Positions 21,157-49,592 of a stretch of 64,000 nucleotides of DNA are shown in pieces. The position numbers were made by a program, and so were the translations under genes. This stretch comes from Oscillospiraceae bacterium (GTDB lineage: Bacteria > Bacillota > Clostridia > Oscillospirales > CAG-272), in NCBI GenBank assembly GCA_015064745.1, contig SVRR01000006.1, positions 115 to 64,114 on the forward strand, in the 5' to 3' direction. Under the pieces are notes generated by a model, which did not search any database, was not told where the DNA came from, and was given only the letters and a program-made list of their open reading frames with translations. Within the stretch, counting starts at the first letter, position 1; each line of letters begins with the position of its first letter.

Positions 21157-21195
21157 AAAGCATCTCCGAGCGCGTTTGCGCTCGGAGATTTTTCT
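21157..21195. terminator. Bidirectional intrinsic terminator
   Basis: ATCTCCGAGCGC-gttt-GCGCTCGGAGAT flanked by A and T runs. Confidence 0.8.
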
Positions 21196-24300: not shown

Positions 24301-26787
24301 CTTTTCAAAGACCTCCTCAATGCGGAGGAAGGAGATGTGCAGCTCGCTGCGAAGCACGTATCCGTCCTTCTTCTCAGGCTGAATGATGCTGTAATAGTTG
24401 TAAACGGGCTTTTTGGCAACCGTGTACTCAACCACCTTGCCGCCACTCTTGCTTTCCTTCTTTTCCGCGATCATCTTGGGATCGAACATCAACTCGGAAA
24501 GCAGGAATGCTACGCGGGCATTGAGGTCGTACGCCGGCTTCATACCCTTTTCCTTCATCGCGGCATCAATGCGCTCAGAGAAGCGAGAGATGGGCATGCC
24601 CGAATCGTCCGCCGTTGCTTCGCAAAGCAAACGCAAAAGCAAAATCTTGTCGGTATCTGCATGCTCGGTCGCGCGAGGCTTAATCAGGTCGGATTGGTTG
24701 ACGTACATCTCCACGCGGTCTCCGAAATACTCACGGAGCAGGTAAGGGCGGCTGAGAATGTGCAGAATGGACGCTTCTCTGCCGTGGAAGCGCGTGTACG
24801 CATAAATGGCGGCAGCGAGATTGCATCGGTCGTCCGTGCAGATCATGTAATTGACGCGCGGCACTTCCTTATGGAAGTGATTGATCTCAACGTCGTGCGC
24901 CATAAAATTCTGCTTCTCGGCAGGTGTAAGCGGAACGCTTGTCAAAATACGAATACCGTCCACATGAGCACCGTACGCCGCCTCGGCGATCAAGGACTCA
25001 ATGGTGGTCTCGCTTTGACCGTCCTTGTTATAGAGGACGTTGCTTTCGCGGTTCCACAGCATGTAGGAAACGTGCTCGTTTTCCTCAGCACTGTTGCAGT
25101 CAACGATCTCCTCGTCGATGCAGAAGAACTTGCGAAGGCTTGCCGAGAAGCCCTGCAAAACGTCGCGGGAAAGGAACATGAAACGGATCCTTCCGTTCGT
25201 TGCTTCCTTTAAGCGACAAGCCATAATAGCGCAAAGATAGCTGTTCAGATTAAGGATCTTATCCGCGTCCACGAAGACAGCGTTGCACGCCTCCTCAAAG
25301 AAGCCGGGATAGTTTTCCACAAGATTGTCGGTCGCAAAATCCTCAGGCACACCCACAAGAACGTCCGCCTCGTTGAGGTGATGCGCGTCGGCACTGTAAA
25401 CGCGCCAGGTCTCCTCGCGCGTCACTCCCGTGATTTCTGTGAGTCGGTTACCGATGTATTGCTGGAGCCCTACCACCTTGCTTCTGTCCGAGACGATAAA
25501 GATGATCCTCTGTCCCGAAAGCAAGCGCATATAGGCATAGGAGATGATGTATTCGCCCAGCTGAGAATAGAAGGACGAGCCGAAATACACGTGTCGGTTA
25601 TTGAACACCGCGTCAAGACCACCCATATAGCTTTGAATGACCTTGCCATAATTGTTTTTCATATAGACGCTGATGTACCCCATCGCGTCCTTATAGATCT
25701 CGTTGGTACAGCGGTATTCCGCGACCTCCTTCGATTCGGTGGCAGGAAAATAGCGAATGCTGTGATACTTGGCAAAGCGGCGCAAAATGTCACAGCGAAG
25801 CTTGTCAAGACCGATCTTTTTCTGTTCCTTCTCTTCCTTTTCCGCAATCTCAATCACTCTTTTGGTCGAGACAGGAGGCTTGCAGGGGGAGCGGAAGGTA
25901 TTGCAAAGCTCTTGCAAAAAGATAAGAGAAATGAAAGGATAGATGTACATCTTGGCGGTGAGCCAGTTGAGAACGGTGTACACGAAGGCAGGCATGGGGA
26001 AGAAAACGCCTAACAGCAAAAGGAAGAAGAGCACGGCATAAAGCGCCTCTACAACGTAGATAAAGAACTGTACGACCGAGGTTGCGGCATGTACAAAGCG
26101 GCGCGAGTGCTTTAAGTCGGGCGCTTCAAAGAAGATGCCCCAAAAGCCCATGTAGACACGGTAGAGGAAGGGATGCTCCTTTTTGAACTTTTCATCCTCC
26201 GCATGCGTCTTGCGGGTGGCGAGCGCCTTTTCCTCCTCGTCTTGCGCGTTTGCGGTATCCGCGGTATCCTCCGTCTTCTTGCGTCTTGCGCGGAAGAAAA
26301 CGGAAATGCGGCGCGGCTTTTTCGCCGTATCGCCTGTCGCCGTCGACTGCTCCTCACCGTCGTTCTTTTTCTTCTTTTTCGACTTTTTCTTTTTCTTATG
26401 GAAGCCAAAGCAAACGCCGAGCGCTCCCTTGACAAACGCTTTGAGGAACAAAAGCAGGTAAAGCGTCACAAGATTCAAAAGCAGGACCTTGAAGACGACC
26501 GAGCTTCCGAAAGCAAGCGCGGAGGATGCCTTGGAAAGAAGCTTTGCAATAAACGGAACGGAAGCGACCGTGCTTGCGATGTTGAAGATTGCGCCGTAAA
26601 CGACAGCAAGCGCCACAAATTCAAGCACCGCCAAAACAACGAAGAATGCGTTTAAACGGTTGTTGGGCGCTTCATAACGCAGAGCGTAAAAGCTCGAAAA
26701 GCGTCGTAGCTTTTTAGGCAGGGGAAGAAGAGGGAGAAAAAGGAGCAATACTGCTGCAATGATAATAAGAACCTTTACTGCTGTCAT
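21325..26787 (-). CDS. 1820-aa membrane-anchored multidomain protein: TM helices, degenerate SF2-helicase-like region, Zn ribbon, transglutaminase/papain-like C-terminal domain
   Basis: N-terminal TM segments; CSFC...CFGC; VCVGYA...HAWN...LDVTW catalytic triad; remnants of helicase motifs without a Walker A. Confidence 0.8.
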   Translation of the reverse strand: MTAVKVLIIIAAVLLLFLPLLPLPKKLRRFSSFYALRYEAPNNRLNAFFVVLAVLEFVALAVVYGAIFNIASTVASVPFIAKLLSKASSALAFGSSVVFKVLLLNLVTLYLLLFLKAFVKGALGVCFGFHKKKKKSKKKKKNDGEEQSTATGDTAKKPRRISVFFRARRKKTEDTADTANAQDEEEKALATRKTHAEDEKFKKEHPFLYRVYMGFWGIFFEAPDLKHSRRFVHAATSVVQFFIYVVEALYAVLFFLLLLGVFFPMPAFVYTVLNWLTAKMYIYPFISLIFLQELCNTFRSPCKPPVSTKRVIEIAEKEEKEQKKIGLDKLRCDILRRFAKYHSIRYFPATESKEVAEYRCTNEIYKDAMGYISVYMKNNYGKVIQSYMGGLDAVFNNRHVYFGSSFYSQLGEYIISYAYMRLLSGQRIIFIVSDRSKVVGLQQYIGNRLTEITGVTREETWRVYSADAHHLNEADVLVGVPEDFATDNLVENYPGFFEEACNAVFVDADKILNLNSYLCAIMACRLKEATNGRIRFMFLSRDVLQGFSASLRKFFCIDEEIVDCNSAEENEHVSYMLWNRESNVLYNKDGQSETTIESLIAEAAYGAHVDGIRILTSVPLTPAEKQNFMAHDVEINHFHKEVPRVNYMICTDDRCNLAAAIYAYTRFHGREASILHILSRPYLLREYFGDRVEMYVNQSDLIKPRATEHADTDKILLLRLLCEATADDSGMPISRFSERIDAAMKEKGMKPAYDLNARVAFLLSELMFDPKMIAEKKESKSGGKVVEYTVAKKPVYNYYSIIQPEKKDGYVLRSELHISFLRIEEVFEKLLANNARVELSMHGTVIGTLDTFPDRVYQQYLPGQYIIYDNHEYEIEKISGDKHTIYLRQENITNNSCLDTAFLRRYTVSGRKDAGALHGVHHYSMGTLAEINIGYESAEILGETYGFYRLMANSQTLNFKDGVGGNPNLDERTVNEQARRLKDGKILSVRLVSRQKCSDGTRKLLAAVLNEFLRTMFPETYRCVAVCPVLLAPIEKESVNESYEGCVETLYPYLVDGTAAKDEKTAEFLIINDADADVGILDRLYDGGARIMEELFSYIYDYLKWLGSHPTLPAGDAHYIYFGADTLPSVYDLEGSLALLANCERKIGEDKEEDAVEKPTHCSFCKRPLVTGRYAIYDDHRYICFGCQVEAISEDKDLVRVVEEVKSYWAEHFADRELPRNVNFTLADPFSLEEGQELSEYFYRLAYENRRVEIECDLPHDCVFVAVLRGFLSVWHRDDNCVTTSAVAQLYYEELCYLDSIGAAERAEYTRTAIGDSWMPLVDDIKRYIAENTGRTSFDYVVENATRPDDDDILPTPGDDDEEGGGNEGLDALYDPDRVPRFWKRYLRGKRASDDDSNDGRTTDGDASETGDTGADEGDTSTASDGMPRTTPEGEKNGKLAKLKTGSELIPHEPEEDRNPQIRLYNEIARHISDFSDEAIPCFDMPLAMVRRIFYFVLYDYPEFFWVESFRYSHVGDKVKSMMLCFRCLGSDGKVDVARVQKHRKELRAHVKFFTKGITRKTDPYEAMLTIYRRLILNLDYDGVGLDSGAGQNVREEDTLRSLHSALVDHKVVCVGYAVAAQYLLQSVGICCGQVVSKTHAWNVVKLGKYCYYLDVTWGDPSNTKRGDADQNVVGYGYFCVTAKENLLGEDKSVREPDPELFGDLEEFRATKHEYCRFHGGYLTSYNEEQIAKVFAKAVSERPFEKAAPCAVFRCSDKNVYDMIVRYLWTDGGIHTVKEKARALIAKEGKNKQANKLLDRSVQLWPNSRNLTLQFLFPED

Positions 26788-26792
26788 CGTCC

Positions 26793-28790
26793 TTATATTC
26801 TCCTTTCTTCAAAAATGTCTTCAATCACGTCAATGGTGAACACCTTATAAATGCGGTTCATACGGAAGGACTCGTTGAGCTTAAACTCGTCGTCATCCAA
26901 AGCAACCTCTCCATCCGCCTTGTGTGCCACCTGCATGCTGGTCAGCATACCGAGCAGGACGTCGCGCACACGCTCAAGCATTTCTCGGTGCTCTTCAATA
27001 TGGCGATTGATCTCACGGTTTGCCTCGTACAGCATAGCAAGCTCCGCAAGCTCATAGTGAATGCTCTCCACGGCAGGCAAATATATGATATAACGGTTTC
27101 TTAAACGGAAGATCGCCTGTCTTTGTTTGACAAGGCATTTCTCGTGCAGGTCGGTCATCTCCAGCTTTGCCGAACGGATATCCCGTAAAATGGGGATCAC
27201 GTGTAAAAGCGCCGAAAGAAGGAAGACTCCGCCAAATACAGCCATGGCGACGGAAAGAAGGACTACCGCGCCAAGCTTCGAATCCTTAATTTGGAAAACG
27301 AAATAGGGAACGAGCATGGCAAGCATTACAAGCACAAAGCATACGACATTGGTGCGTACGTATTTCTCAATACGCGCCTTGCCCGAAAGATATTTGTCGC
27401 GCGCGTCATTTGCCTTAGCAAATTCTTCGGTGTAATCGGCACCGTCATAATCGGCATCGATCGCCGCCTTTAAAATACGGCGCATGGTAACCTTTTTCTT
27501 CTCTACGGCATTTTCATATTCAAGCCCCGAGGGGTACTTGCTTTGCTTCTTTGCGTCACGCAAAATGGCACGGGTGTCCTGCTCGGTGGCGTGATTGCGC
27601 ATCTCGTCGCGCGTTTGCTTGTAAGCGCTCATATAGGTCGCAAGCTCCCGCTTTTCATCCGCACTCTTGGTGCCGGGCGGCACGGAGGCAAGCTCACGGA
27701 TCTTATCGTAGCGCGCTTCAAAGCTCGTCCCCTTCGCGGCGGCGATGACGTCCATCTTTTCCTCATCGCTCATGGTATCGACGCAAATGCTGTCGGAAAC
27801 CGTTTTGCGCGTTTCGAGCACGTAGAAGCCGTTGGAGTTGCCGCTTTGACGGACATATTCAAGGGCGCTTTGCACCTTGCCATAGGAATGACGAAGTGTG
27901 TCGAAGAAGCGCTCCTTATTCATTTTCGGCACGTCCACCACGTCGTCTCTCTTATCAACGGCGATATCCATTTCCTGCTCGTAGGAACGGATAAGAGCCA
28001 AGGAGAGGTTGAGGTTATCGAAGGCAGCGCGGCTTTCGCTCCTCGCCGATGCCGTACCCGCTACATACGTACGTGAGCGCGAGCCGAAGGCACGATAAGC
28101 GATGTCGTACTTTTCGGAAAGATTGCGATAAAAGGTATCGAAGGTCGCGTCCTTCGCCTTGCCGATATCCTTACAAAATTCATCGGCACGGAAGGTAAGC
28201 TTTCCTCCGCGGTATTCGACCGTAAACATCTCGTAACGGGGGAGCTCTTTTACATCCTCAGACGCTTCCGCTTCTGCCTTTTTCGTACTCTTCTTTTCGG
28301 CTTTGACAGGCTCTTCGGGCATGCGGACGGTCTTTTTCGCCTCTACAATACGGTCATGCTCATCGTCAAGACCGAGGAGAGTCGCAAGCTGCTCCTTCTC
28401 CGCCGCATTCTCACGAATGGTATTCTTTTCCGTGTATTGAATATAGAACACCTCAAGGCCGTCAAAGCCGAGCTGCGCACGGCGAAGCGGCGTATAGAGA
28501 TGGTCATGGAGATATATTTCTATCAACGATTTATATATCGCAAGATACTCGCTGACGGGATTTTCTTCGGGATACAGCGTCTTATCGAACGCCAAAAAGT
28601 CAACGAGCACGACTACACGGTATTCCCCTGCGGTCATCGGCTGTTGACGCTTGACGATCTCCTCCGCGCAATCCTCAATAGCACTCAAAGGGCTGCGCAT
28701 CCATGAGATCTTATTGTATCCGACCAACTCAAAAAGAAGATCGGTTTTGAGAACCTTATTCTCCGATGTATTGATAACGTATGTTAACAT
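26793..28790 (-). CDS. Hypothetical coiled-coil protein with C-terminal TM hairpin
   Basis: 665-aa ORF with RBS; two hydrophobic helices flanked by helical charged regions; 5 nt from the next gene. Confidence 0.85.
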   Translation of the reverse strand: MLTYVINTSENKVLKTDLLFELVGYNKISWMRSPLSAIEDCAEEIVKRQQPMTAGEYRVVVLVDFLAFDKTLYPEENPVSEYLAIYKSLIEIYLHDHLYTPLRRAQLGFDGLEVFYIQYTEKNTIRENAAEKEQLATLLGLDDEHDRIVEAKKTVRMPEEPVKAEKKSTKKAEAEASEDVKELPRYEMFTVEYRGGKLTFRADEFCKDIGKAKDATFDTFYRNLSEKYDIAYRAFGSRSRTYVAGTASARSESRAAFDNLNLSLALIRSYEQEMDIAVDKRDDVVDVPKMNKERFFDTLRHSYGKVQSALEYVRQSGNSNGFYVLETRKTVSDSICVDTMSDEEKMDVIAAAKGTSFEARYDKIRELASVPPGTKSADEKRELATYMSAYKQTRDEMRNHATEQDTRAILRDAKKQSKYPSGLEYENAVEKKKVTMRRILKAAIDADYDGADYTEEFAKANDARDKYLSGKARIEKYVRTNVVCFVLVMLAMLVPYFVFQIKDSKLGAVVLLSVAMAVFGGVFLLSALLHVIPILRDIRSAKLEMTDLHEKCLVKQRQAIFRLRNRYIIYLPAVESIHYELAELAMLYEANREINRHIEEHREMLERVRDVLLGMLTSMQVAHKADGEVALDDDEFKLNESFRMNRIYKVFTIDVIEDIFEERRI

Positions 28791-28935: not shown

Positions 28936-31900
28936 TTATTCTTCGGAGTTTGCGGGAGCTGCGGGAGCCGTTTCTGCCACAGGCGCCGCCTCGACAGGAG
29001 TCTCCTTCTTGGGAGCTACGTCAATACCGCGGCTCTTGCGCACGTTGCTCACGCATCTTGCCATGCGATCCTCTTGGAAGGCGTTGAAGTTGAAGGCTCT
29101 CTTCGCCCACTTACCCTTGCCGGGCTCGGCGGAGGGAACGATCTCCATGAAGCATCCTGCGCGGTTTGCAAATTGAAGCATCATCTTTGCCGTATCAAGC
29201 GCGGTAGCCTCGGGAATATCCTCGTCACAGAACATCTCGGCGATGAAGTAATCAAGCTCCCACATATAGACCTCGGCAAAGAGATCGTCCGTGCTGCTGA
29301 CGACGCGCTCACAGAGATCCCAAAGAAGATCGCTGACGACAGCGAGAATCTTCTCGGCATCGTTGCAGTCGTAGCCGCCGCGGCTTTCTTCCTCAACCTT
29401 AACGGCATAAGCGAACTCGAAGAGGCTCTTGTTCAGCTTCTTTTGAAGCACCGTGCGGGCAGAAGAGCCTGCGGGCGCATTGTTAAGGAGATTCTCAAAG
29501 ATGTTTCTGCGGAGCATGGAGAGATACTTGGTGGTAGTGAGCTTTGCCTTTGCGGCAGGAATCTCGTGCGCAAAGCCCGTCTTGGGAAGAACGGAGAGCT
29601 GATCCTCGACATTGCGGTCGAACTCTTGGCACCATTTCTCGATCTTATCGTCCTGAGGACGGAGCCATGCGATAAGACCGATCAGATTGTTTTCGTCGAC
29701 AAATCTACCGTCGCCGACGATCTTCTCGCCCGCAAAGCGGAAGGCTCTGTCGGAATACTCGGCGCTGTACGAGATCTCACCGTTCATGATAGCGTAAAGA
29801 AGCGCCTTAAAGAGCTTCTTGTCTGCCTCAGCCTCGAGATCGGGGTTGATGTAAGGCAGGTAGCCGCGCTTGTGCCAGTTGAAGCCAAGGTGCGGGAACA
29901 TGCTGTCGTTCTTCTGGTCTTCGCCGACCTTCACAGCTTCAAGATAACGCTTGTAATAGCCGTCCTCGCCGCTCTTCTCGTTGACCTTCACGATATCCAC
30001 CGAGTTAACGCTCATGAGCGCGCGGCAGATAAAGATGGTGTTCTCGGGAACGGTGTCCTCGATACGAACAAAGGATTCGGGGCAGAATCTGGTTACAAGG
30101 TCATCGGTGCATGCGGCGCTGGGCGCGATGCCGAAGCGGTCGGTGTTCTTCTGCAAGTAATCCTCAACCTTTTTCGGAGCAAGAACGACACCCTGCGTCT
30201 TATGCATACCGCCGGACTTCACTTGAAGTGCGGGCTTCGCCATCTCGAAGGCAGTCAAAATAGCCGTCTTTGCCGCATCGTATTCCTTGCCGCGGTTTTC
30301 CTCGGCAAGCACCTCGAAAACGTTTCTCGCGCGCAGAGCAACGCAATAGTCGCCCTTCGCAATCTGCTTGAGGTTGGAAGCCTTCATGGTATCGAACACA
30401 GCGGTGGCATCCACACGCTCATCCTCGGCAACGGTGCCCTTCTTTGCGCAGGACATCTTGTAGGCGATAGCGAATACGCCTTCGCCTGCCGTGCTGATGC
30501 CCTCACGCTCGTCAGCCATACTGTCCTCCATCATCAGCTCGTAATGACGGCGGCGCTGTTCAATGGAAGCACCCACGTATACACAAGAGGTGTCGGCACC
30601 CTTTGCCTTATCCTCCTCTGCTCTCTTGACCTTTTCCTTAAGGCGATCCTTCTGCTCGGCAAAGCGGCCGAAGAAGGAACGGTAGCTCTCGATCATGGCG
30701 TCAATGCGGCCCTTAAGCGTCTCAATGGTGCGGCGGAGAACCATCTCGCCGGCATCGTTCTTGAGGGAGGTGAGCAGCATATCGCCGTCCTTGATCAAAG
30801 CCTCGCTATCGACCGAATAGTCGGTCTTCTGTGCTTTGTATGCCTCTGCCGCGGAGGGATCAAGGAAGGTGCTGAAGCGCGAGGTCTCGCCCTTTAAGTA
30901 AGCACTCTTTGCCGCACGGCTGCCGAGCTGCAGCGTATCAACGTCGCCGCATTCAAGGAAGTCGTGAGGAAGATCGCCGATCTCGTAAGCACCGACGTCA
31001 CGCCACTCCTTACCGCGAAGAGCCGCACCCTCTCTCTCAAGGAGGAGACGGAAGGAGCAAAGCTGAAGCATAGCGGCAACGGGATGGATGTAATAGCCAT
31101 CCTTCGCAAGCACGTTCTCGGTGAAGGAAAGCTTTTGGTTGGCAAGAGGATCCTTCTTGGGATCCATAGGAAGGATCGCATCGGCAACAACGTTCAGCTG
31201 GCTATTGACCTCATCCACTGCCATTTTATAATACGAGTTGAGGCTCTCGTAGATCTCGTTTGCGATCTCTACGACCTGATTTCCCTTAGCCTCCTTCTCG
31301 CTCTTACCCGCAAACAGACCTGCGGCATCCACCTTGGTGATGTCGCTGATGGCATCCAGCTGATCCTTGTTGTCGGGAGCGAGGGCGATGAGCGCCTTCT
31401 TGATCTCCTTCCAATATTCTTCAAGAATATTATAAGGAACGAATTTGCCATCCTTTTCGATGGTGGGCATTACCGCATCCTTCAACATCTCGGTGACGTT
31501 ACAGGTGGGCGTGCGCTCCTCCGCATCCTTAGCGTCGGTAAAGAGCTTTGCGTAATCCTTAACGGTGAGGTGATACTCCTTGCGCATCTCCTTTGCCTTC
31601 TGACGCTTTTCGGCAATCTGTGCCTCGGTTGCATTGTGAAGCACGAGCCATGCGCCTTCGGCATCGTCCTGCGTCTTGCGCCAAGCAAAGTATTCTAACA
31701 TCTCGTCGATAGGATAGTGGATCTCCGAGGAGCCGATACCCGCGAACATACAGTTGTGACCCGTTTCGTTGGCACGCTTTTTCTCCTCATTCGACCAGAT
31801 GGAGTCAAGCTCACCGCCTGCCTTGGTGCAGATGAGGGAGTAAAGAGTGTTTGCAAGTGCCTCGTCGTGCGCGATGATGGAAGAAACGTTGACGATCTTC

Positions 31901-32730
31901 TCCATCATACAAACACGTTCAAAGGGAGCTGCCTCAGGAGACCAGAAAGCAGGGTCTTGAGAATCAAACAGCACACCTACGGGGCTGTCCTTGGTGCCGA
32001 GACGGAAGCGGACGGGGGTACGGCCCGCGCTTGCGGTCTCGTTCTTACCGTCATCATAATCGCTTCTGTTCAAGCCGTAAACGACCTGGTTGATCGCGTT
32101 CAGCTCACGCAAAATAGCATACGCATTTGCGTAAATGCTGGTAATGTTTGTGCGGTCACCGCTCTGCTTGCCCTCGTAGATATCGGGGCAGGCAAGAAGC
32201 GCTCTCGCGTGAATTGTGGTCTTTTCGCCAAACTTCTCACGGATGACCTTCTTTACGTAAAGGGTCAGAGGAATGAAGGAGCCGGAGCCCGTACCGCCCG
32301 CGAGAGAAGCAACGGTGTAGATGTCAATGTCGATTGAGGGATTGGTCTTGTCCGCCAGCTTCTCGATTGCCTGCTCGAGAATGGTTCTTTGTCTTCCGTT
32401 CATGGCATTGAGGAAGGCGAGATAGGACTGCTTTCTCCACTGACCTGCGCCGATGGAAATGTTATTGCTGTCAAAGATGGAATCCGAGGGGAAGAAATCG
32501 CCCCATACGGATTCGCCAAGGCGCTCCTTTACCGTCTTTACGGTTACGTTATCCGAAAGGGAAACGATGGTTGCGGCATCGATATTCTTTTCGTCAGCCA
32601 TGTTGGTATCAAGCACGATGGAAACGATGTTGACATCGTTTTGCTTGCCCATCTTGTTGATCTTCTTTTGCAGCATGTTTGCCGCGCGGCTGCCGGTACC
32701 ACCGACGCCAAGGATGAGGACACTCTTCAT
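28936..32730 (-). CDS. Tubulin/FtsZ-like GTPase (Tubulin_2/FtsZl1-type), paralog B, 1264 aa
   Basis: ILGVGGTG (T1), GAGQ (T3), SLAGGTGSG tubulin signature, YANAYAILREL; AAGGAG RBS. Confidence 0.9.
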   Translation of the reverse strand: MKSVLILGVGGTGSRAANMLQKKINKMGKQNDVNIVSIVLDTNMADEKNIDAATIVSLSDNVTVKTVKERLGESVWGDFFPSDSIFDSNNISIGAGQWRKQSYLAFLNAMNGRQRTILEQAIEKLADKTNPSIDIDIYTVASLAGGTGSGSFIPLTLYVKKVIREKFGEKTTIHARALLACPDIYEGKQSGDRTNITSIYANAYAILRELNAINQVVYGLNRSDYDDGKNETASAGRTPVRFRLGTKDSPVGVLFDSQDPAFWSPEAAPFERVCMMEKIVNVSSIIAHDEALANTLYSLICTKAGGELDSIWSNEEKKRANETGHNCMFAGIGSSEIHYPIDEMLEYFAWRKTQDDAEGAWLVLHNATEAQIAEKRQKAKEMRKEYHLTVKDYAKLFTDAKDAEERTPTCNVTEMLKDAVMPTIEKDGKFVPYNILEEYWKEIKKALIALAPDNKDQLDAISDITKVDAAGLFAGKSEKEAKGNQVVEIANEIYESLNSYYKMAVDEVNSQLNVVADAILPMDPKKDPLANQKLSFTENVLAKDGYYIHPVAAMLQLCSFRLLLEREGAALRGKEWRDVGAYEIGDLPHDFLECGDVDTLQLGSRAAKSAYLKGETSRFSTFLDPSAAEAYKAQKTDYSVDSEALIKDGDMLLTSLKNDAGEMVLRRTIETLKGRIDAMIESYRSFFGRFAEQKDRLKEKVKRAEEDKAKGADTSCVYVGASIEQRRRHYELMMEDSMADEREGISTAGEGVFAIAYKMSCAKKGTVAEDERVDATAVFDTMKASNLKQIAKGDYCVALRARNVFEVLAEENRGKEYDAAKTAILTAFEMAKPALQVKSGGMHKTQGVVLAPKKVEDYLQKNTDRFGIAPSAACTDDLVTRFCPESFVRIEDTVPENTIFICRALMSVNSVDIVKVNEKSGEDGYYKRYLEAVKVGEDQKNDSMFPHLGFNWHKRGYLPYINPDLEAEADKKLFKALLYAIMNGEISYSAEYSDRAFRFAGEKIVGDGRFVDENNLIGLIAWLRPQDDKIEKWCQEFDRNVEDQLSVLPKTGFAHEIPAAKAKLTTTKYLSMLRRNIFENLLNNAPAGSSARTVLQKKLNKSLFEFAYAVKVEEESRGGYDCNDAEKILAVVSDLLWDLCERVVSSTDDLFAEVYMWELDYFIAEMFCDEDIPEATALDTAKMMLQFANRAGCFMEIVPSAEPGKGKWAKRAFNFNAFQEDRMARCVSNVRKSRGIDVAPKKETPVEAAPVAETAPAAPANSEE

Positions 32731-32798
32731 TTTTGTTCTCCTTGTTTCTTTGTTTGTTTATATATAATTTAAATAATGAAAGCTTTGGCTGTCAAACG

Positions 32799-35700
32799 TC
32801 ATGCGTTTGCCTGTTCCTCACCCATGGGAACGGGGGTAGAAGCATTGGAGTCACTCTCGCTCTTGGCGCGACTTCTCGCTACGCGGTCAAGAGAGGACAT
32901 ACGGTATTCAAGAAATTCCGCGAAATTGAAATCTCTCTTTTCCCATTTTTTGCTGGGATCGCGGCTGGGAACGATCTCCATAAAGCTGCCCGCACGATTC
33001 GCGAAATGCAGAAGCGTTTTGACCACGGCAACACGGTCGCCGTCATCTTCGGGCATATCATCGTCAAGATACATCTCGGCAACAAAGTAGTCGAGCTCCC
33101 ATTCGTAAATTTCCTTGAACTGATCCTTGTCGCTGCTGACGACGCGCTCGCAAAGCTCCCAAAGGAGGTCGCTGACCACCGAGAGGATCTTTTCTCCGTC
33201 GTTACAGTCGTAGCCGTAATGACCCTCCTCCTCGGTCTTGATGCGATACGCAAACTCGAAAATATTCATATCGAGCTTCTTCTTGATCTTCGCGTATTTC
33301 TTTTCGTCCTCGGGGCTTGCCTTTTCCTTACCCGCCGTTTTAAAGAGATTTTCAAAGATGTTGCGGCGAAGCATCTTCAAATACTTCGTCAAGGTAAGCG
33401 CTGTCTTCGCCTTTCCGATCTGATGGACAAAGCCGGTAGACGGAAGCGACGAAAGCTGCTCCTCTACGTCACGGTCGAACGCATCGCTCCACTGCGCGAT
33501 CTTATCATCCTGCGGACGGAGCCACGCGATCAGCCCAACGAGATTGTTATCATCCACAAACCTACCGTCACCCACGATCTTCTCTCCATCGTAGCGGAAA
33601 GCAAGGTCGCCGTATTCCTTCTTGAAGGAAAGCTCGCCGTTCATGATAGCGTAAAGCAAAGCCTTGACCATTCTCTTGTCGGCGGCAACCTCAAGCTCGG
33701 CGTTGATGTAGGGGAGATATCCGCGCTTGTGCCAGTTGAAGCCAAGGTGGGGGAGCTTACTGTCATCGGAGTAGCCCGAGCCGTCTCCGCACTTGGAGTA
33801 ATCGGAGCCTGCCATCTTGACCGTTTCAAGATAGTACTTATAATATCCGTCCTCAAGGTTGTTCTCGTTGACCTTGATAATGTCAATGGAATCCACGCTC
33901 ATGAGCGCGCGGCAAACGTAAATGGTATTGGCGGGAATGCCCGCTTCCAAACGCACAAGGGCATTTTGGCACCACTTACCGATAAGATCGTCCGCGCAAG
34001 CACGCGCGTCGCCGCCGCCAACCGACAGATCGAACACGTGCGAGTTCGCTTCAAGGTATTCCTCAAGCTTTTCGGGCACGAGCACAACGGCCTGCTCCTT
34101 TTGCATTCCCGTCTCATTGACGCGAAGGGCGGGCTTTGCCATTTCGTACGCCGTTGCGATGATCTTTCTTCCGATCTCGCTTTCCGCGCCCGCGTTCTCG
34201 TCCGCGATCACCTCAAGAACGTTCTTTGCGGCGATCTCCTGATAGTAATCGGAGCGCTTGATGGATGCTTTATTCGCTTCATACATAGCGGAGAAGACGC
34301 TCGTGGTATCTACCTTAATGTCATCCTCTGCCTTAAAGCGCTTAGCGCATGCCATGCCGTAGGCGATGGAGAAAACGCCCTGCCCGGCGATTCCGCCCTC
34401 GGCACCGCCCGACATCATGTCGCCGACAAGTCTCTCGTAATGCTTTCTGCGGCTCTCAACCGAAGCGCCTACGTAAATGCAAGAGGTCTCGGTGGAGGCG
34501 GAGCGTTCAATCTCCGCTCTCTTCACGCGATCGGAAAGGCGTGACTTCTGCTCGGTAAAGCGGCGGAAGAAGGCGCGGTAGGATTCAATCAGCGCGTTCG
34601 CACGGTCGGCAACCTGTGAAAGCACACGGCGAAGCAGCATTTGAACGGCTTGATTTTTGAGGGAGGTCAAAAGAAGATCTCCATCCTTGATGAGCGCCTT
34701 GTTATCGATCTCGTAGTCGGTTCTCTCCTTGGCATATGCCTGCTTTCCGTTCTCGGAAAGCATTTCGGTAAAGCGCGCTCTCTCCTTTTTCAGGTAAGCG
34801 CTCTTGCCCGTTCTTGCGCCGAGATCAAGAATGCTGACGTCGTCGGTGCATTCCAGAAGCTCAAAGGGCAGGCTTCCCACCTCAAAGGTGGAGAGATCCT
34901 TCCAATCGCGGCTATCCATGCGGGAAAGCTCCTCGGCGATAGCAAGACGCAAGGTGCAAAGCTGCATCATTGCCGCCACGGGATGCACATGCACACCGCC
35001 GCGCGCGAGCACGTTGTTTACAAAGGAAAGGTCAAGGCTTGCCGTGGGATCCTTTTTCATGTCAAGCGGCAGGATAGCGTCGGCGCAAATACCAATCTGG
35101 CTGCGGATCGCCTCGACTGCCTTCTGATAATAATCGTTGAGGTAATCGTAAACCTCCTCCGCGTTGTTGGCGACCTGCTGTGCCGCGGTCTCCTTCGCGG
35201 TCTTGGGGGCTAAAAGCATCGGATTCTTTACGGGATTGATATCCGACGCGATCTGTCCCGCGATATCGCTGTGATCGGGAATAAGCGCTTCCAGTGCCGC
35301 CTTCAAGCGAGTGAAATACTCGTTGAAGACGAACTTTTGCTCTTCCTTGCCGTCGCGGCGCTCATAATATCGCGTCGCCGCGCGAATGATCTCGGTGATA
35401 TTGCCCGTTTCGGTGCGCTCCTCTGCCTTCTGCGCTTCTAAGAAGAGCTTCGCGTAATCCTCGGTGGTGAGATGGTATTCCTTACGCATCTCCTTGGCAA
35501 GCTTGCGCTTTTCGGCAATCTGTGCCTCGGTCGCGTTGTGGAGAAGCAGCCACTCGCCCTCCACATCGTCACGCGTTTTGCGCCACGAAAAATATTCGAG
35601 AAGGGTATCGATCGGATATTGGATTTCAGAAGAGCCTATGCCGGCGTACATGCAGTTATGACCCGTTTCGCCCGCGCGCTTCTTTTCCTCGTTGGACCAA

Positions 35701-36629
35701 ATGCCGTCAAGCTCCCCGCCCGCTCTCGTGCAAACGAGGGAGTAAAGGATGTTTGCCATCGCCTCGTCATGCGCGGCGACCGAGGAAACGTTAATGATCT
35801 TCTCCATAAGACAAACACGCTCAAAGGGGGCTGCCGTAGGAGAATGATACCTCTTGCTTTTGGAATCAAAGAGGACACCGACGGGGCTATCCTCACTTCC
35901 GAGGCGGAAATTAACGGGCGTTCTTCCGCGGCGCGCGTTTTCGCCCTTACCGCTGTCATATTCCTCACCGTTCAGCCCATACACGACCTGGTTGATACCG
36001 TTGAGCTCACGCAAAATAGCGTACGCGTTTGCGTAGATGCTGGTAATATTCATACGGTCGCCGTTCTGCTTTGCCTCGTAAATATCGGGGCAGGCGAGCA
36101 TAGCTCTCGCTCTTACGGTAGCGTTCGGGAACATCTGACGCAATCTCTTTTTCACATACAGCGTCAAGGGGATAAAGGAGCCCGAGCCCGTACCGCCCGC
36201 AAGAGAGGCTACGGTGTAAATGTCGATAGAAAAGGTTGCCTGCGTCTGGTCGACCAGCTTTTGCAGGGCATTATCAAGATCGTTTCTGCGGATCGAGTCG
36301 TTCATCGCGTTTAAGAAGGCGAGGTAGGACTGCTTTCTCCACTGACCGGCACCGATGGAAAGATTATTCTCATCGTACTTATGATCTCTCGGAAACCACT
36401 CGTTGCACTGTGCGCCGAGACGGTTACGCACCATCCCCACCGTCGCGTTCTCCGAAAGAGAGATGACCGTGGCGGCATCGATGTTTTTCTCATCCGCGGC
36501 ATTGGTGTCAAAGACCACGGAGACGATCTTAACGTCCTCGGTCTGACCCGCGCGAGAGATCTTCTTTTGCAAGAGGTTAACTGCTCGGCTGCCGGTACCG
36601 CCAACGCCGAGAATAAGAACACTCTTCAT
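32799..36629 (-). CDS. Tubulin/FtsZ-like GTPase (Tubulin_2/FtsZl1-type), paralog A, 1276 aa
   Basis: Same motifs as paralog B; start set at MKSVLILG (36629) after the AAGGAG RBS. Confidence 0.9.
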   Translation of the reverse strand: MKSVLILGVGGTGSRAVNLLQKKISRAGQTEDVKIVSVVFDTNAADEKNIDAATVISLSENATVGMVRNRLGAQCNEWFPRDHKYDENNLSIGAGQWRKQSYLAFLNAMNDSIRRNDLDNALQKLVDQTQATFSIDIYTVASLAGGTGSGSFIPLTLYVKKRLRQMFPNATVRARAMLACPDIYEAKQNGDRMNITSIYANAYAILRELNGINQVVYGLNGEEYDSGKGENARRGRTPVNFRLGSEDSPVGVLFDSKSKRYHSPTAAPFERVCLMEKIINVSSVAAHDEAMANILYSLVCTRAGGELDGIWSNEEKKRAGETGHNCMYAGIGSSEIQYPIDTLLEYFSWRKTRDDVEGEWLLLHNATEAQIAEKRKLAKEMRKEYHLTTEDYAKLFLEAQKAEERTETGNITEIIRAATRYYERRDGKEEQKFVFNEYFTRLKAALEALIPDHSDIAGQIASDINPVKNPMLLAPKTAKETAAQQVANNAEEVYDYLNDYYQKAVEAIRSQIGICADAILPLDMKKDPTASLDLSFVNNVLARGGVHVHPVAAMMQLCTLRLAIAEELSRMDSRDWKDLSTFEVGSLPFELLECTDDVSILDLGARTGKSAYLKKERARFTEMLSENGKQAYAKERTDYEIDNKALIKDGDLLLTSLKNQAVQMLLRRVLSQVADRANALIESYRAFFRRFTEQKSRLSDRVKRAEIERSASTETSCIYVGASVESRRKHYERLVGDMMSGGAEGGIAGQGVFSIAYGMACAKRFKAEDDIKVDTTSVFSAMYEANKASIKRSDYYQEIAAKNVLEVIADENAGAESEIGRKIIATAYEMAKPALRVNETGMQKEQAVVLVPEKLEEYLEANSHVFDLSVGGGDARACADDLIGKWCQNALVRLEAGIPANTIYVCRALMSVDSIDIIKVNENNLEDGYYKYYLETVKMAGSDYSKCGDGSGYSDDSKLPHLGFNWHKRGYLPYINAELEVAADKRMVKALLYAIMNGELSFKKEYGDLAFRYDGEKIVGDGRFVDDNNLVGLIAWLRPQDDKIAQWSDAFDRDVEEQLSSLPSTGFVHQIGKAKTALTLTKYLKMLRRNIFENLFKTAGKEKASPEDEKKYAKIKKKLDMNIFEFAYRIKTEEEGHYGYDCNDGEKILSVVSDLLWELCERVVSSDKDQFKEIYEWELDYFVAEMYLDDDMPEDDGDRVAVVKTLLHFANRAGSFMEIVPSRDPSKKWEKRDFNFAEFLEYRMSSLDRVARSRAKSESDSNASTPVPMGEEQANA

Positions 36630-36698
36630 TACGTTTCTCCTTAGTTTTTCAGAGTTTTGGTGCGCCCTCCGCCCCGGGGGGCGGGAGCGCATTTGCCA

Positions 36699-39600
36699 TT
36701 ACTTCGTCTTCCCTACCGAACGGGCGGAGACGAAGAGATAAAATTTGTTTTTAAGGACAAGGCCTCTCGTACCCGTTAGGGGCTGGTCGATGTTTGCCTT
36801 GCTCGTTTTCTGGGTGATCTTGACCAAAATGCCCGACATCGAAATCTTGTTGAAGTTAAAGCTTGTGCCGGGTCTCAAAGCCGCCCAACCCTTGTTTTTC
36901 AAGGTAGTGGAAACGATCAGTCCGTTCGGCTTGATCTCACCCTCCATACACTTGATGCCCGCGACAACGCAAACACCCGCGTTTTGGTGATATTTCAGCG
37001 TGCCCTCGGTCGTGGGAATATCCTTCGACCAGAAGCAGAGCCCCACGAAGGGAATGAGTCTCTTAAGGATAAGATACTCGCGAAGTCCGAGTCTCTTGAT
37101 GACGATGACCTTACCCTTTAACTCAGTCTCCTCTTTGTCGTAGTCGACGATGGGAACTCGAACGAATACGCCCTGCGGAATACGCTTGACCTTACCGAAG
37201 GTGAGCACCAGGAGGACGAGCTGAATGATGTAAAGGATCAGCAGAATACGCCATACGTAGGAAACGATGCTCGCGTCTTGGAGTGAGATCACGCCCACCG
37301 CGTTCACGTTGCCGTAATGCACGTCCATATCAAGGCCTGTTCCGAAAACCAGCATCGAGGTCACAAGTCCGCGCAAGAGGAAGAACTGTCCCGCGATGGG
37401 ACGAACGGTAAATACCGCCGTGTCTCCCACGCTCGCCACCGTGCACTCTGTGCGCACGGGCGACAAGATGGATTTGTAGGAAGAGTGATCAAGATACATG
37501 GTACCGTCGTCGAGCGCGCTTTGCAGCTCTTCGGCGGAAAGGGGTACGCCGTCGCGCAACACCTTGAAGGAAATCGTGCTTTGGTTTTTCTTCAAAGCAA
37601 AGCGGTCTACTTTACCCGTAGGCTCAAGCGGCACCACCTCGAAAACGGTGTCGGTGAGGGTGAGCTTGTGCTTGCTTTGCACAGTCTCCGTCGTCGCTCC
37701 TTGGAAGCTGGCAGTCAAAACAACATCGTATTCGCCCGTTTTGCTTGCAAGGTCCCCGAGCGTTTCTGCCGTAGGAACGTAGGTGAGAACGTTGCCGTTC
37801 ACCGAAGCGTGCTTGGTTACGTCAATGCCGCCTACCGTTAAGCGGTACGTAAGGAGCGCGTTCGCAAAGGGGATATTCACCTTCTCGGCATCCGTGCCCG
37901 CCGTGAGGGTGAAGCTATACCCCTCGGCATTGTTTATGACACCGTGGAGCGTCTTGGAAAGACTGTCCGCCCCCGTGCTCGTCAAAGTCAGTCCCGAGGG
38001 ATAGTAGCCGATGGGAACATCGATGGCGCGCGGGTTACCGTCCGCATCCTTGACCGATGCTTTAACGGTGTAGGTGCCGTACTCCTCCCCCGCCGTATTC
38101 AGAGTGACGGTGAAGGTACCGTCGGTATTCTTCTGCATAGAGAAGCCCGTGTACGCCGTTCCGTCCTCCTTCACGACCGACACCGAGGGAGAGAACGCCT
38201 CAAGCGCGGAGAGAGAGGAAAGCGCGGTGTTTTGGTTATAGACCGTAAAGGGAATCTTGAAGGTGGTAGTGTTCTCTATCGCAACGTCACCGTTCTCAAT
38301 GCGGAAGAAGGTGGGATTTTCCAGCACCACGCAGGGGAAGGATGTGTAAAGCGTATACTGACCGCCCAGCATGGTGACGGAGATGGCCATCTCCTTCTTT
38401 CCCTCCACGAGCGTGATGGGTTCGCCGGGCGCGTAGCTCTTGGTGTTGTAGGTAACGCGTGCCGAGGAGGCTCCGCCCATCAAGGAGGGGTCGACCGCCG
38501 TTCCCGTGCCCTGCTCTACGATGCGGTAGGAGAGATACACGGTGTCGTTCTTCTTCATGCTGCTGTTGATGTAAGCTGCGTCGACCTCCTTGCGGCCGTT
38601 GCCGTCTGCCACCTCGATTACCGGCTCAAGCACGAGCGCAGGCTCAAGGAGCACCGAGACGACAGCGGCGCTGCCGGGCGCATCGTCCAAGGAGAGGACG
38701 ATCTCACCGCCCGTAAAGGGCGCGTTCGCGCCGCGGCTGAGCACGGCGGTAAAGCCGCCCTTCATCGCGGTCGTGGTGGTATCAAAGCCCGCCTTCTGGC
38801 TTGCCCCGATGGGAGTGCCGTTGTAGGTGGCGGAAACAAAGCGTGCGTTGGTGTTGGTCGCCATGACCGTAACGGTACGCAGACCGAAGCCAATGCTGTC
38901 TAGGGGAATGCGGACGGTCGTGCCGCTAACCGTGACGTTTTCAAACGGATATCTGCCCGTAATGCGGTTGGCAACGTTCTTCATCACCTCACCGATGGAA
39001 GATGTGTCGGGTGCCTTGTACGCCACGAAGTTCGCCTTGTCCTTCAAGCTGTCGGCTTGGCTCAAATCGAGGGAGTCTCTGTCAAAGCCGATGTAGATGC
39101 TTTGGAAGAAGGCGTATTTGGAAAGGTCATCGTCAAATTTATCCGCCGCAAGCTTGATATTGCCTTCCAGCGTGCTTGCGGTACAGCAGTTAAAGGCACC
39201 GTCCGTGAGGACCACGAGGAAATATTCGTTCTCGCTCTTCTCGTCTGCCGCGATCTTGGAGGTCTCCTTCATGCCGTAACGGCGGACGAGCTGCTCTACG
39301 GCGACGGCAATACCCGCGTCGGGTGTACCGCCCTCGGGACTTGTGGAAAGAAAGCTCGACGCGCTCGTCATCACGCGCGTGATCTCCGCTTCTCTGTCCT
39401 CAGCTCCCAGATCGACCTCAATGACTGCGGGGTCTTGCCAGTTCGTCACCTCTGTCCAAGAGTTCTTTTGGTTCATCGGCGTAATGATCAGCGTATCGTT
39501 CTTGCCGAGGGTAGCCATCAGCGTTTGAAGCGCATACCTTGCGTAATCCCAGCGGTCGCCTACCATTGAGCCCGAGTTGTCAAACAATACGGAGACGACC

Positions 39601-39716
39601 TTGTTTTTCGTGTAGCTTGTCTGCCCGTCTGCGGCAGATGCCGACCCGATGGGCAGCATTGTTACGAGGAGAAGCACCGCAAGCAAAAGCGACAAGAGTC
39701 TGACCTTGGTTTTCAT
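36699..39716 (-). CDS. Exported, membrane-anchored von Willebrand factor A domain protein
   Basis: Signal peptide MKTKVRLLSLLLAVLLL...ASA; MIDAS DNSGS, GGTP, LTDG; Thr/Val-rich beta stalk; TM YVWRILLILYIIQLVLLVLTF; basic cytoplasmic tail. Confidence 0.88.
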   Translation of the reverse strand: MKTKVRLLSLLLAVLLLVTMLPIGSASAADGQTSYTKNKVVSVLFDNSGSMVGDRWDYARYALQTLMATLGKNDTLIITPMNQKNSWTEVTNWQDPAVIEVDLGAEDREAEITRVMTSASSFLSTSPEGGTPDAGIAVAVEQLVRRYGMKETSKIAADEKSENEYFLVVLTDGAFNCCTASTLEGNIKLAADKFDDDLSKYAFFQSIYIGFDRDSLDLSQADSLKDKANFVAYKAPDTSSIGEVMKNVANRITGRYPFENVTVSGTTVRIPLDSIGFGLRTVTVMATNTNARFVSATYNGTPIGASQKAGFDTTTTAMKGGFTAVLSRGANAPFTGGEIVLSLDDAPGSAAVVSVLLEPALVLEPVIEVADGNGRKEVDAAYINSSMKKNDTVYLSYRIVEQGTGTAVDPSLMGGASSARVTYNTKSYAPGEPITLVEGKKEMAISVTMLGGQYTLYTSFPCVVLENPTFFRIENGDVAIENTTTFKIPFTVYNQNTALSSLSALEAFSPSVSVVKEDGTAYTGFSMQKNTDGTFTVTLNTAGEEYGTYTVKASVKDADGNPRAIDVPIGYYPSGLTLTSTGADSLSKTLHGVINNAEGYSFTLTAGTDAEKVNIPFANALLTYRLTVGGIDVTKHASVNGNVLTYVPTAETLGDLASKTGEYDVVLTASFQGATTETVQSKHKLTLTDTVFEVVPLEPTGKVDRFALKKNQSTISFKVLRDGVPLSAEELQSALDDGTMYLDHSSYKSILSPVRTECTVASVGDTAVFTVRPIAGQFFLLRGLVTSMLVFGTGLDMDVHYGNVNAVGVISLQDASIVSYVWRILLILYIIQLVLLVLTFGKVKRIPQGVFVRVPIVDYDKEETELKGKVIVIKRLGLREYLILKRLIPFVGLCFWSKDIPTTEGTLKYHQNAGVCVVAGIKCMEGEIKPNGLIVSTTLKNKGWAALRPGTSFNFNKISMSGILVKITQKTSKANIDQPLTGTRGLVLKNKFYLFVSARSVGKTK

Positions 39717-39823
39717 AAAGTCTTTCCTTCCCAATTACATTTAAACGTTCTACGATACCCCGGCAGGTTTCTCTCTTTAATATTAAAGACAAAACCTTAT
39801 TAAGGGACACAATCCTACATTAC

Positions 39824-39997: not shown

Positions 39998-40031
39998 AAA
40001 AAAAGACCGAAACTCTGATTTCGGTCTTTTT
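39998..40031 (-). terminator. Intrinsic terminator after metA
   Basis: AAAAAGACCGAAA-ctctga-TTTCGGTCTTTTT. Confidence 0.8.
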
Positions 40032-49284: not shown

Positions 49285-49314
49285 ATTTTCTCCTTTTTCG
49301 AGGGGGAAAAGAAT

Positions 49315-49592
49315 AAACAAAGCCCGCCTCAAAGACGTAAAATACTTTGAGACGAGCTATAATCTCTTATATCCCGCGGTACCACTCAAATTGCACCCTT
49401 ACGGGCACCACTCTCGGACTCATACAAGCCCTATGCCTTTACGCAGCAATCACGGAGAGGTTCTACGGCACCCCTTGGGACACTTTCTTCCTCTCGGCTC
49501 GGAAGCTACAAGCAAACGCGCGGTCTTTACCGACTTACACCATCCGTCGGCTCTCTGTAAAAGCCATCGCTATGCCCTCTTCGTCACAGCCT
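49315..49592 (-). ncRNA. T-box riboswitch, probable Val (GUA) specifier
   Basis: GA motif, AGAGA and GGTGTAA loops, T-box AATTTGAGTGGTACCGCG (49392-49375), terminator at 49317-49358; GTA at 49509-49507. Confidence 0.92.

Follow-up and report, generated by a model that had tools for sequence, protein, structure and literature searches.

Two adjacent genes in a 64,000-nucleotide stretch of DNA from an Oscillospiraceae bacterium (contig SVRR01000006.1; the whole stretch is hereafter called the window) encode large paralogous GTPases with a tubulin-like fold, which we call A and B. They are the second and third genes of a predicted five-gene operon, or cassette, that also encodes a surface protein and two membrane proteins. 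Nearly every cassette keeps two or more such paralogs, so that A and B, which are both under purifying selection, are very likely two cooperating subunits. At even chances in our judgment, A and B would be non-redundant subunits of one membrane-associated GTPase machine, hetero-assembling at the cytoplasmic face of the membrane. An alpha/beta-type filament in the proper sense is less likely than some hetero-oligomer, because the canonical second domain was not found and because polymerization of this family has been doubted since 2010.

The paralogs A and B

The ORFs (open reading frames) of both genes are open on the minus strand (28936-32730 and 32799-36692), and an AAGGAG ribosome-binding site is located 6-8 nt 5' of the ATG at 36629 for A and at 32730 for B. 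Because this strong site precedes the ATG at 36629, A was taken to span 32799-36629 and to comprise 1276 amino acids (aa), as had been given in an earlier note on this DNA, made from the sequence. A BLASTP alignment of A and B is colinear from residue 1 to approximately residue 1235 (750 of 1259 positions identical, or 60%; 73% positives; 30 gaps), confirming the colinearity across the C-terminal region described in that note, and every motif quoted there was found in both translations. The GTP-binding loops T1 (GVGGTGS) and T4 (AGGTGSGS), which resemble the FtsZ/tubulin signature GGGTG(S/T)G and are invariant in the first-copy clade described below, are present in both A and B. Six of the eight motif segments compared between the two window proteins, including T1 and T4, are identical, and the other two differ by one residue each, in agreement with the claim that both paralogs are intact with full GTP-binding loops. 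Two antisense ORFs, 29074-30897(+) and 32733-34544(+), of 607 and 603 aa, occupy equivalent places inside B and A and are probably shadows of the coding frames.

Synonymous sites of the two window genes are saturated (synonymous divergence dS 1.86, nonsynonymous divergence dN 0.34 by the Nei-Gojobori method, NG86). The A-B junction is bridged by contig pieces of two public runs from different studies; the pieces are short, and none of them covers the whole stretch. Since the same arrangement recurs in independently assembled genomes and the junction is bridged in these two runs, the pair is not an assembly repeat.

The source assembly holds four Tubulin_2 genes, and the second pair is located on another contig, C24. 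Over its whole length of 30.6 kb, C24 is syntenic with window positions 6771-42855 (positions 6885-42969 of the window's contig) at 66-85% nucleotide identity, and C24 also bears second copies of the genes for ribosomal proteins L2, L4, and L3 and for PolA, with nucleotide identities of 68-85%. The assembly has no other large duplicate between contigs, and C24 shares 89.6% identity with the locus of another congeneric species. The presence of two loci in one genome was considered and rejected: because the ribosomal protein genes are also duplicated on it, C24 is most likely a co-binned contig of a sister species. The C24 genes were used as one more ortholog pair in the comparisons. A co-binned copy of the whole region means that the bin is not clean, and this is what could be said for regarding the window pair as an artefact of assembly or binning, or one of its copies as redundant or decaying. 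We consider such an explanation highly improbable: both genes are open and full-length in five or six species, the ratio dN/dS (omega) is far below 1 for both, and the junction is bridged in independent assemblies as well as in two further runs.

The Pfam family Tubulin_2 (PF13809) matches B with 115.2 bits (E 5e-33) and A with 123 bits (E 2e-35), against a cut-off of 27, over profile positions 1-349 of 356. The scores of the two proteins for the canonical Tubulin/FtsZ family (PF00091; 26.3 and 25.2 bits) are below the cut-off of 33, and no Pfam match to FtsZ_C or Tubulin_C was obtained in either protein. On these profile matches, A and B are members of the FtsZl1 family (Pfam Tubulin_2) rather than canonical tubulins or FtsZ proteins. 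An AlphaFold2 model of B residues 1-545 was built from a 122-row alignment (predicted local distance difference test, pLDDT, 86.3). Foldseek ranked FtsZ, CetZ, and TubZ first among the relatives of this model (33 matches with E ≤ 0.001; best FtsZ E 2.5e-5), the alignments covering approximately 310 columns with template modeling (TM) scores of only 0.40-0.45. VIA-align superposed the model on CetZ, FtsZ, and tubulins with Z values of 16-17 and root mean square deviations of 2.8-3.5 Å over 200-220 aligned residues, the top matches being CetZ (3zid_A and 4b46, Z 17.2) and FtsZ of M. tuberculosis (6y1v_A, Z 17.0). The superposition is confined to model residues 1-337, against FtsZ up to approximately residue 230. 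Because the Foldseek and VIA-align matches lie over B residues 1-337, this part of the model is predicted to be a GTPase domain of the FtsZ/tubulin type. While FtsZ and CetZ are the best structural matches of these 337 residues, the sequence identity is 13-20%, the alignment ends past the core helix region of FtsZ, and FtsZl1 has several family-specific insertions.

Past the GTPase domain, B is predicted to consist of a helical stalk, a family-specific C-terminal domain, and a disordered tail beginning at approximately residue 1241. The AlphaFold2 model of B residues 520-1264 (pLDDT 87.5) is mainly helical, and one helix is approximately 69 residues long (model residues 119-187). A Foldseek search of the PDB with these C-terminal 745 residues gave nothing at E ≤ 0.001 (best E 0.1, TM ≤ 0.14). 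Among 48,161 chains compared by VIA-align, the highest Z was 6.4, from helical hairpins only, over model residues 23-247; the 745-residue model is above the size advised for this search, and a known fold is possible for a sub-domain. A profile of the whole family matched only designed helical bundles among PDB sequences, with E 0.002 or worse. A phmmer search with B residues 880-1240 recovered only 101 proteins from 1.84 billion representatives. Nearly all of them have lengths of 1080-1350 aa and are matched in the same C-terminal region, and the short ones seem to be fragments. As nearly all of these matches come from proteins of the same length and at the same place, the C-terminal domain is, according to these searches, confined to the FtsZl1-type family and has no solved relative. 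The shared C-terminal region of approximately 900 aa had been put forward as an unannotated domain. It is family-specific and lacks a solved relative, as that claim would have it, but a helical C-terminal domain was described in 2010 (PMC2875224).

Recurrence of the pair and divergence of its copies

Among the species genomes of the genus, 10 of 213 contain a homolog of B (E ≤ 1e-20), and all 10 carry two or three adjacent copies in the same five-gene cassette. Any Tubulin_2 gene (E ≤ 1e-10) was found in 21 of 401 sampled genomes of the order, mostly as single genes. Cassettes were collected by a pattern scan of one genome per species, which yielded 345 confirmed matches. The analysis retained the best 80 of them, located in 64 loci that overlap in part with loci fetched separately. 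The gene maps were drawn from our own ORF calls and from our own hidden Markov models (HMMs), built from the window cassette and a few relatives. The tubulin-like genes are bounded by homologs of gene 1 and of genes 4/5 of the operon in 46 of the 64 loci, and the other 18 loci are cut by contig ends. Two tubulin-like genes are present in 38 of the bounded loci, three in 2, and one in 6. In five congeners that lack the cassette, the flanking homoserine O-succinyltransferase and SbcC-like genes are on different contigs or were not found, and no clean insertion or deletion was seen.

Some of the three-gene loci show peculiarities of their own. In L063 (4082-7890), one of the two three-gene loci of the scan, the first gene appears as two overlapping ORFs (895 and 379 aa), reflecting a frameshift or a sequencing error. 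In the congeneric three-gene cassettes L021 (7017-9869) and L022 (7368-9941), the middle copy is short (950 and 857 aa) and very divergent, with a degenerate T1 (GGNG and GGMG, respectively).

The selection acting on the pair was estimated by NG86 from the aligned codons of six A genes and five B genes. Across this set, A and B differ with dN of 0.29-0.37 and dS of 1.07-1.89, the latter being saturated, so that omega is not meaningful for this comparison. Omega is 0.037-0.15 among the A orthologs and 0.03-0.19 among the B orthologs, and the least saturated ortholog pairs (dS 0.44-0.52) have values of 0.03-0.04. These values indicate that A and B are both under purifying selection. Of the columns compared between the A and B clades, 559 are identical, 89 are fixed within each paralog but different between the two, and 155 more have disjoint residue sets. 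The 89 paralog-specific sites are spread over the full length rather than clustered in the GTPase domain, and they peak in residues 51-100 (11 sites) and 901-950 (12 sites).

Two trees were calculated: a FastTree phylogeny of 113 copies and an IQ-TREE "quick" phylogeny of 44 copies, rooted on the single-copy cassettes. Their branches are long, and the deep order is tentative. In the FastTree phylogeny, 34 second-position copies (716-1166 aa) with long branches form one clade apart from all first-position copies, and the branching within this clade mirrors that of the first-copy partners. The IQ-TREE phylogeny places all copies of multi-copy cassettes in one group and thirteen first-position copies in one clade (support 100 for each). 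It also contains a window-type clade of 11 rows (support 100), which lies outside the first-copy clade and unites the A clade, the B clade, and two additional copies from a three-gene cassette. The A and B clades, each represented by 4-5 species rows, have support values of 98-100 in the 44-row tree, and the same split is present in other trees. An approximately unbiased (AU) test rejects a tree that holds all first-position copies together (difference in log likelihood 600, p 0.0002), the group for this test having been named after the tree was seen. Because the window-type clade lies apart from the first-copy clade, and because of the AU test, we tentatively place the window A/B duplication after the ancient split of first and second copies and before the five or six species in which it is found diverged. 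An old gene conversion could mimic a young duplication, and the saturated dS argues only against a recent one.

The copies also differ in their GTP-binding motifs. In the first copies, GVGGTGS (T1), GASQWRK, and AGGTGSGSFI (T4) are almost invariant, whereas the 34 second copies often have GGFG, GGYG, GQMG, GKDG, or GESG at T1 and GGTGSA or GGTSSA at T4. The second copies also lack the segment aligned to B residues 305-321, in which the first copies and the single-copy forms have a near-invariant Ser-Asn; that this segment is the equivalent of the T7 loop is our guess. Most cassettes, as judged from these motifs and branch lengths, combine a conserved first copy with a fast-evolving second copy whose GTP loops are eroded, while the window lineage has two intact copies.

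These results bear on several statements of the earlier note. The phylogenetic and dN/dS comparisons that it proposed found A and B as separate clades in five or six species-level genomes and point to purifying selection on both copies. Its view of the pair as an old, retained duplication and not an assembly repeat is upheld by the saturated dS, the purifying selection, and the independent assemblies, with the correction that the pair is probably a lineage-specific re-duplication and not the ancient pair of most cassettes. The case that it named as contrary to a functional pair, namely relatives with a single copy together with relaxed selection, is not the pattern seen, as omega is far below 1 and 40 of the 46 bounded cassettes are multi-copy.

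The same data can be read in terms of split roles, in which A and B would each form a homo-oligomer or filament with different partners or at different places or times, as sub-functionalized isoforms that do not build an alpha/beta-type heteromer. The complete and identical GTP loops make each protein a self-sufficient GTPase on paper, the six single-copy cassettes show that the pair can be dispensed with, and the spread of the 89 fixed differences along the whole length would suit two isoforms. We regard this explanation as rather unlikely, for the degenerate GTP loops and the deleted conserved segment of the second copies in most cassettes fit better with a dependent partner, and the strict adjacency and co-divergence of the two copies point to a partnership.

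The operon and its neighborhood

Five large ORFs follow one another on the minus strand of the window (36699-39734, 32799-36692, 28936-32730, 26793-28790, and 21325-26787). They are separated by gaps of 5-145 nt, and strong terminator-like hairpins are found only beyond both ends of the five genes (Table 1). The arrangement of the sequence indicates that the five genes are one operon. Transmembrane segments are predicted in the products of genes 1, 4, and 5, and no hydrophobic segment was found in A or B.

Table 1. Genes of the predicted operon and the hairpins at its borders, in window coordinates
Feature	Position	Strand	Basis and remarks
Gene 1, surface protein with vWA-like domain and Ig-like repeats	36699..39716	-	Likely ATG at 39716; ORF open to TTG at 39734
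Gene 2, paralog A, FtsZl1/Tubulin_2 GTPase, 1276 aa	32799..36629	-	ORF, family match, ribosome-binding site
Gene 3, paralog B, FtsZl1/Tubulin_2 GTPase, 1264 aa	28936..32730	-	ORF, family match, ribosome-binding site
Gene 4, p665, two-helix membrane protein, 665 aa	26793..28790	-	ORF, hydrophobic segments
Gene 5, p1820, giant membrane protein, 1820 aa	21325..26787	-	ORF, profile matches
Two-way terminator-like hairpin, 12 pairs, just 3' of gene 5; likely operon end	21162..21189		Hairpin scan
Terminator-like hairpin, 14 pairs, between homoserine O-succinyltransferase gene and gene 1; likely upstream border	40000..40031	-	Hairpin scan

In addition to the vWA-like domain and the Ig-like repeats, the product of gene 1 has an N-terminal signal/anchor helix, a single transmembrane helix (residues 827-845), and a tail of approximately 165 aa. 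The residues of its metal-ion-dependent adhesion site (DxSxS...T...D; D52, S54, S56, T137, and D178) are conserved without exception in all 16 aligned relatives. Pfam lends weak support to the vWA assignment, with VWA_2 found in 3 and VWA in 2 of the 16 relatives (best E 4e-4); the window protein itself has no significant Pfam vWA match and only a weak match to Big_13. The p665 protein consists of an N-terminal soluble part, two adjacent transmembrane helices (residues 483-524), and a C-terminal helical part. It has no match in Pfam, NCBIfam, or the PDB sequences, and the ESM Atlas gives only unnamed clusters from Bacillota (0.87-0.88). Homologs of p665 were found with our own HMM in 45 related loci.

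The giant protein p1820 begins with approximately five transmembrane helices, which are followed by a large middle part and, at the C terminus, by a transglutaminase-like domain. Its profile matches a transglutaminase-like domain protein (PDB 9crn_A) with E 2e-34, the Pfam family Transglut_core matches 10 of 15 members of the p1820 family, and the transglutaminase-like triad (Cys1614-His1640-Asp1655) is invariant. Four invariant cysteines of the middle part (C1162, C1165, C1184, and C1187) form a zinc ribbon. A zincin motif, suggested by the 2010 annotation of the B12 protein discussed below, was ruled out, as HExxH is present in 0 of 15 members. Residues ~1225-1300, after the zinc ribbon, form a conserved block (E1255 and W1275) without HExxH and may be an inactive or different metalloprotease-like domain.

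The neighbors of the operon in the window are housekeeping genes, namely a ribosomal protein operon, polA, SbcCD-like genes, and genes of methionine biosynthesis. Elsewhere in the window, 46984-49332(-) and 49681-51945(-) are neighboring paralogs of 782 and 754 aa, each combining a helix-turn-helix, a cupin, and an AMP-binding enzyme domain with its C-terminal domain.

The genes upstream of 15 loci (30 genes scanned) were varied. A sixth conserved upstream gene of the cassette was rejected for this reason; a gene of 613-663 aa common to three loci also occurs unlinked in the source genome. Two cassettes have an upstream gene that combines TIR with BspA-type LRR (L038:3356-5002 and L042:2400-4043) and is separated from the vWA gene by one unassigned gene, and a RAMP gene (CRISPR type III-like; L075:4667-5671) lies upstream of a single-copy cassette. 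These TIR-LRR and RAMP genes may be defense-island neighbors.

Relation to known systems and proposed machine

Alpha/beta-tubulin and BtubA/BtubB are heterodimers. Like these, A and B are adjacent paralogs of the superfamily with GTP-binding loops and are kept as distinct ortholog groups. Unlike these, A and B belong to another family, are three times longer, are linked to the membrane, and show no match to the C-terminal domain. The alpha/beta analogy drawn in the earlier note is accordingly supported by the separate ortholog groups and weakened by the fact that A and B are not tubulins and that only their N-terminal GTPase domain superposes.

The FtsZl1 family was described by Makarova and Koonin (2010, PMC2875224) as having an FtsZ-like domain at the N terminus, then a coiled coil, and a helical domain at the C terminus, and as usually being encoded in an operon with vWA and membrane proteins. 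The window operon has the same architecture, with the vWA gene upstream and the membrane proteins downstream. The entries available from Additional file 5 of that paper include the order vWA-FtsZl1-B5-B12, with a single FtsZl1 gene, in the cultured Clostridia Ruminococcus lactaris ATCC 29176 and "Bacteroides" capillosus ATCC 29799. In the same part of the supplement, B5 is 658-678 aa long, and B12 is a membrane-associated protein of 1418-1435 aa with a Zn finger, annotated as a zincin protease. B5 and B12 are in the same order as p665 and p1820, the homology being suggested by order and size only. As far as these entries go, the window operon differs from vWA-FtsZl1-B5-B12 in having two FtsZl1 genes instead of one and in that p1820 and 14 relatives have no HExxH and carry the transglutaminase-like triad, while B12 was annotated as a zincin. 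A word search of the main text of PMC2875224 gave no mention of tandem or paired FtsZl1 genes or of heterodimers. The FtsZl1 group was set aside as a divergent "FtsZ-like" one by Santana-Molina et al. (2023, PMC9871819).

According to Kaur, Burroughs, Iyer and Aravind (2020, PMC7159879), GAP1-N2 DO-GTPase systems of Firmicutes contain two coiled-coil-fused tubulin-domain genes together with extracellular vWA proteins, and the tubulin-domain systems are read as regulated cytoskeleton-like assemblies in conflict systems. The window cassette resembles the systems so described in its two tubulin-domain genes with coiled coils and in its membrane protein exposing a vWA domain outside. It differs from them in having no DO-GTPase, GAP1, or second vWA-YtkA gene and in possessing the giant transglutaminase-like membrane protein; the sole mention of transglutaminase in that paper concerns VMAP proteins. 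No Pfam match to DO-GTPase or GAP1 was found in the five cassette proteins and 17 window neighbors, genes 1, 4, and 5 contain no Walker A motif, and a search of the five cassette proteins against PADLOC-DB 2.0 gave two weak matches only (E 0.008 and 0.003) with no significant stretch and nothing credible. One of the 21 genomes of the order with a Tubulin_2 gene contains the locus L007 (4278-12632), where the only such gene (1190 aa) has other neighbors: a weak match to DO-GTPase2 (E 5.5e-5), a membrane protein of the Colicin_V family, and a protein with an F5/8 type C domain. This locus is probably of the GTPase-centered system type of Kaur et al. 2020.

The comparison raises the possibility that the window cassette is a nucleoside triphosphate-dependent conflict system, directed against phages or other invaders, like those of Kaur et al. 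2020. The tubulin-like pair would then be a threshold-setting assembly, triggered via the extracellular vWA domain and releasing the transglutaminase-like protein as a peptidase or cross-linker effector. This is an alternative as to the purpose of the cassette and is compatible with hetero-assembly. It would be in keeping with the two tubulin-domain genes and extracellular vWA proteins described in PMC7159879, with the patchy distribution (10 of the 213 species genomes in the genus and 21 of the 401 sampled in the order), with the variable upstream neighbors, TIR-LRR near two cassettes and RAMP near one, and with the fast-evolving second copy and the turnover of paralogs. The defining DO-GTPase and GAP1 genes are missing, however, and genes 1, 4, and 5 lack Walker A; PADLOC gave nothing credible, and the window operon stands among housekeeping genes (ribosomal proteins, polA, sbcCD-like, and methionine) with no mobile-element genes. 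On balance, we find a conflict function possible but doubtful.

For A and B as cooperating subunits, we propose the following mechanism. The machine would require two different tubulin-like subunits, and these would combine on the cytoplasmic side of the membrane into a heterodimer, a mixed oligomer, or a mixed filament. The assembly of A and B would be driven by GTP binding and hydrolysis and may be tethered or triggered via the membrane proteins of the operon, and the transglutaminase-like domain of p1820 would be the output enzyme. The purpose, which is the least certain step, might be remodeling of the envelope or membrane, or a conflict or defense response to a surface signal sensed by the vWA protein.

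Several points weigh against this proposal. The A-B contact, the GTPase activity, the polymers, and the co-expression of A and B are predictions, and no RNA run containing the pair was listed among the public sequencing runs. The FtsZ/tubulin C-terminal (intermediate) domain, which completes the longitudinal contact, has no counterpart in the VIA-align alignments, which end at approximately FtsZ residue 230. In addition, T6-H7 was not identifiable in FtsZl1, and the family was considered possibly not to form filaments (PMC2875224). Since A and B are 60% identical and have identical GTP loops, homo-oligomers are equally possible for each of them, and the six bounded single-copy cassettes mean that, in principle, one subunit can suffice. 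Both phylogenies (the quick one and the FastTree one) have long branches, and the gene maps depend on our own ORF calls and HMMs. A complex prediction for residues 1-360 of A and of B (121-row alignment each) gave a score of 0.00 in both runs, made without controls, and speaks neither for nor against the contact.

The FtsZl1 family, its architecture, and its link to vWA have been known since 2010, a single-copy cassette of the same gene order and similar protein sizes was already present in the 2010 supplement, and two tubulin genes in a different GTPase-centered system appear in the 2020 paper. Full-text literature searches did not find the two-copy cassette as a rule in gut Clostridia, although the source data of the 2020 paper may list such loci. 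The same searches found neither the split into conserved and degenerate copies nor the re-duplication to two intact copies, nor the transglutaminase-like nature of the giant membrane protein, nor an experimental study of FtsZl1.

Going further, we tentatively suggest an uncharacterized heteromeric machine of the tubulin superfamily, a possibility that we rate well below an even chance. A conserved catalytic FtsZl1 subunit would have to pair with a second paralog, which would repeatedly decay to a pseudo-GTPase or, as in the window, be replaced by a new full-strength duplicate, and the pair would be coupled across the membrane to a vWA sensor and a transglutaminase-like effector. FtsZl1 is among the most divergent branches of the tubulin/FtsZ superfamily, and the question of its polymerization was raised in 2010. 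The cassette family is common in uncultured gut Clostridia and almost always has two paralogs, which makes this question concrete and testable. The intact-intact pairs of the window lineage and the intact-degenerate pairs of most cassettes make it possible to compare binding and GTPase activation between the two arrangements. If true, the proposal would provide a bacterial parallel to the origin of the alpha/beta-tubulin dimer and would show hetero-oligomeric cytoskeletal GTPases arising and being renewed by duplication.

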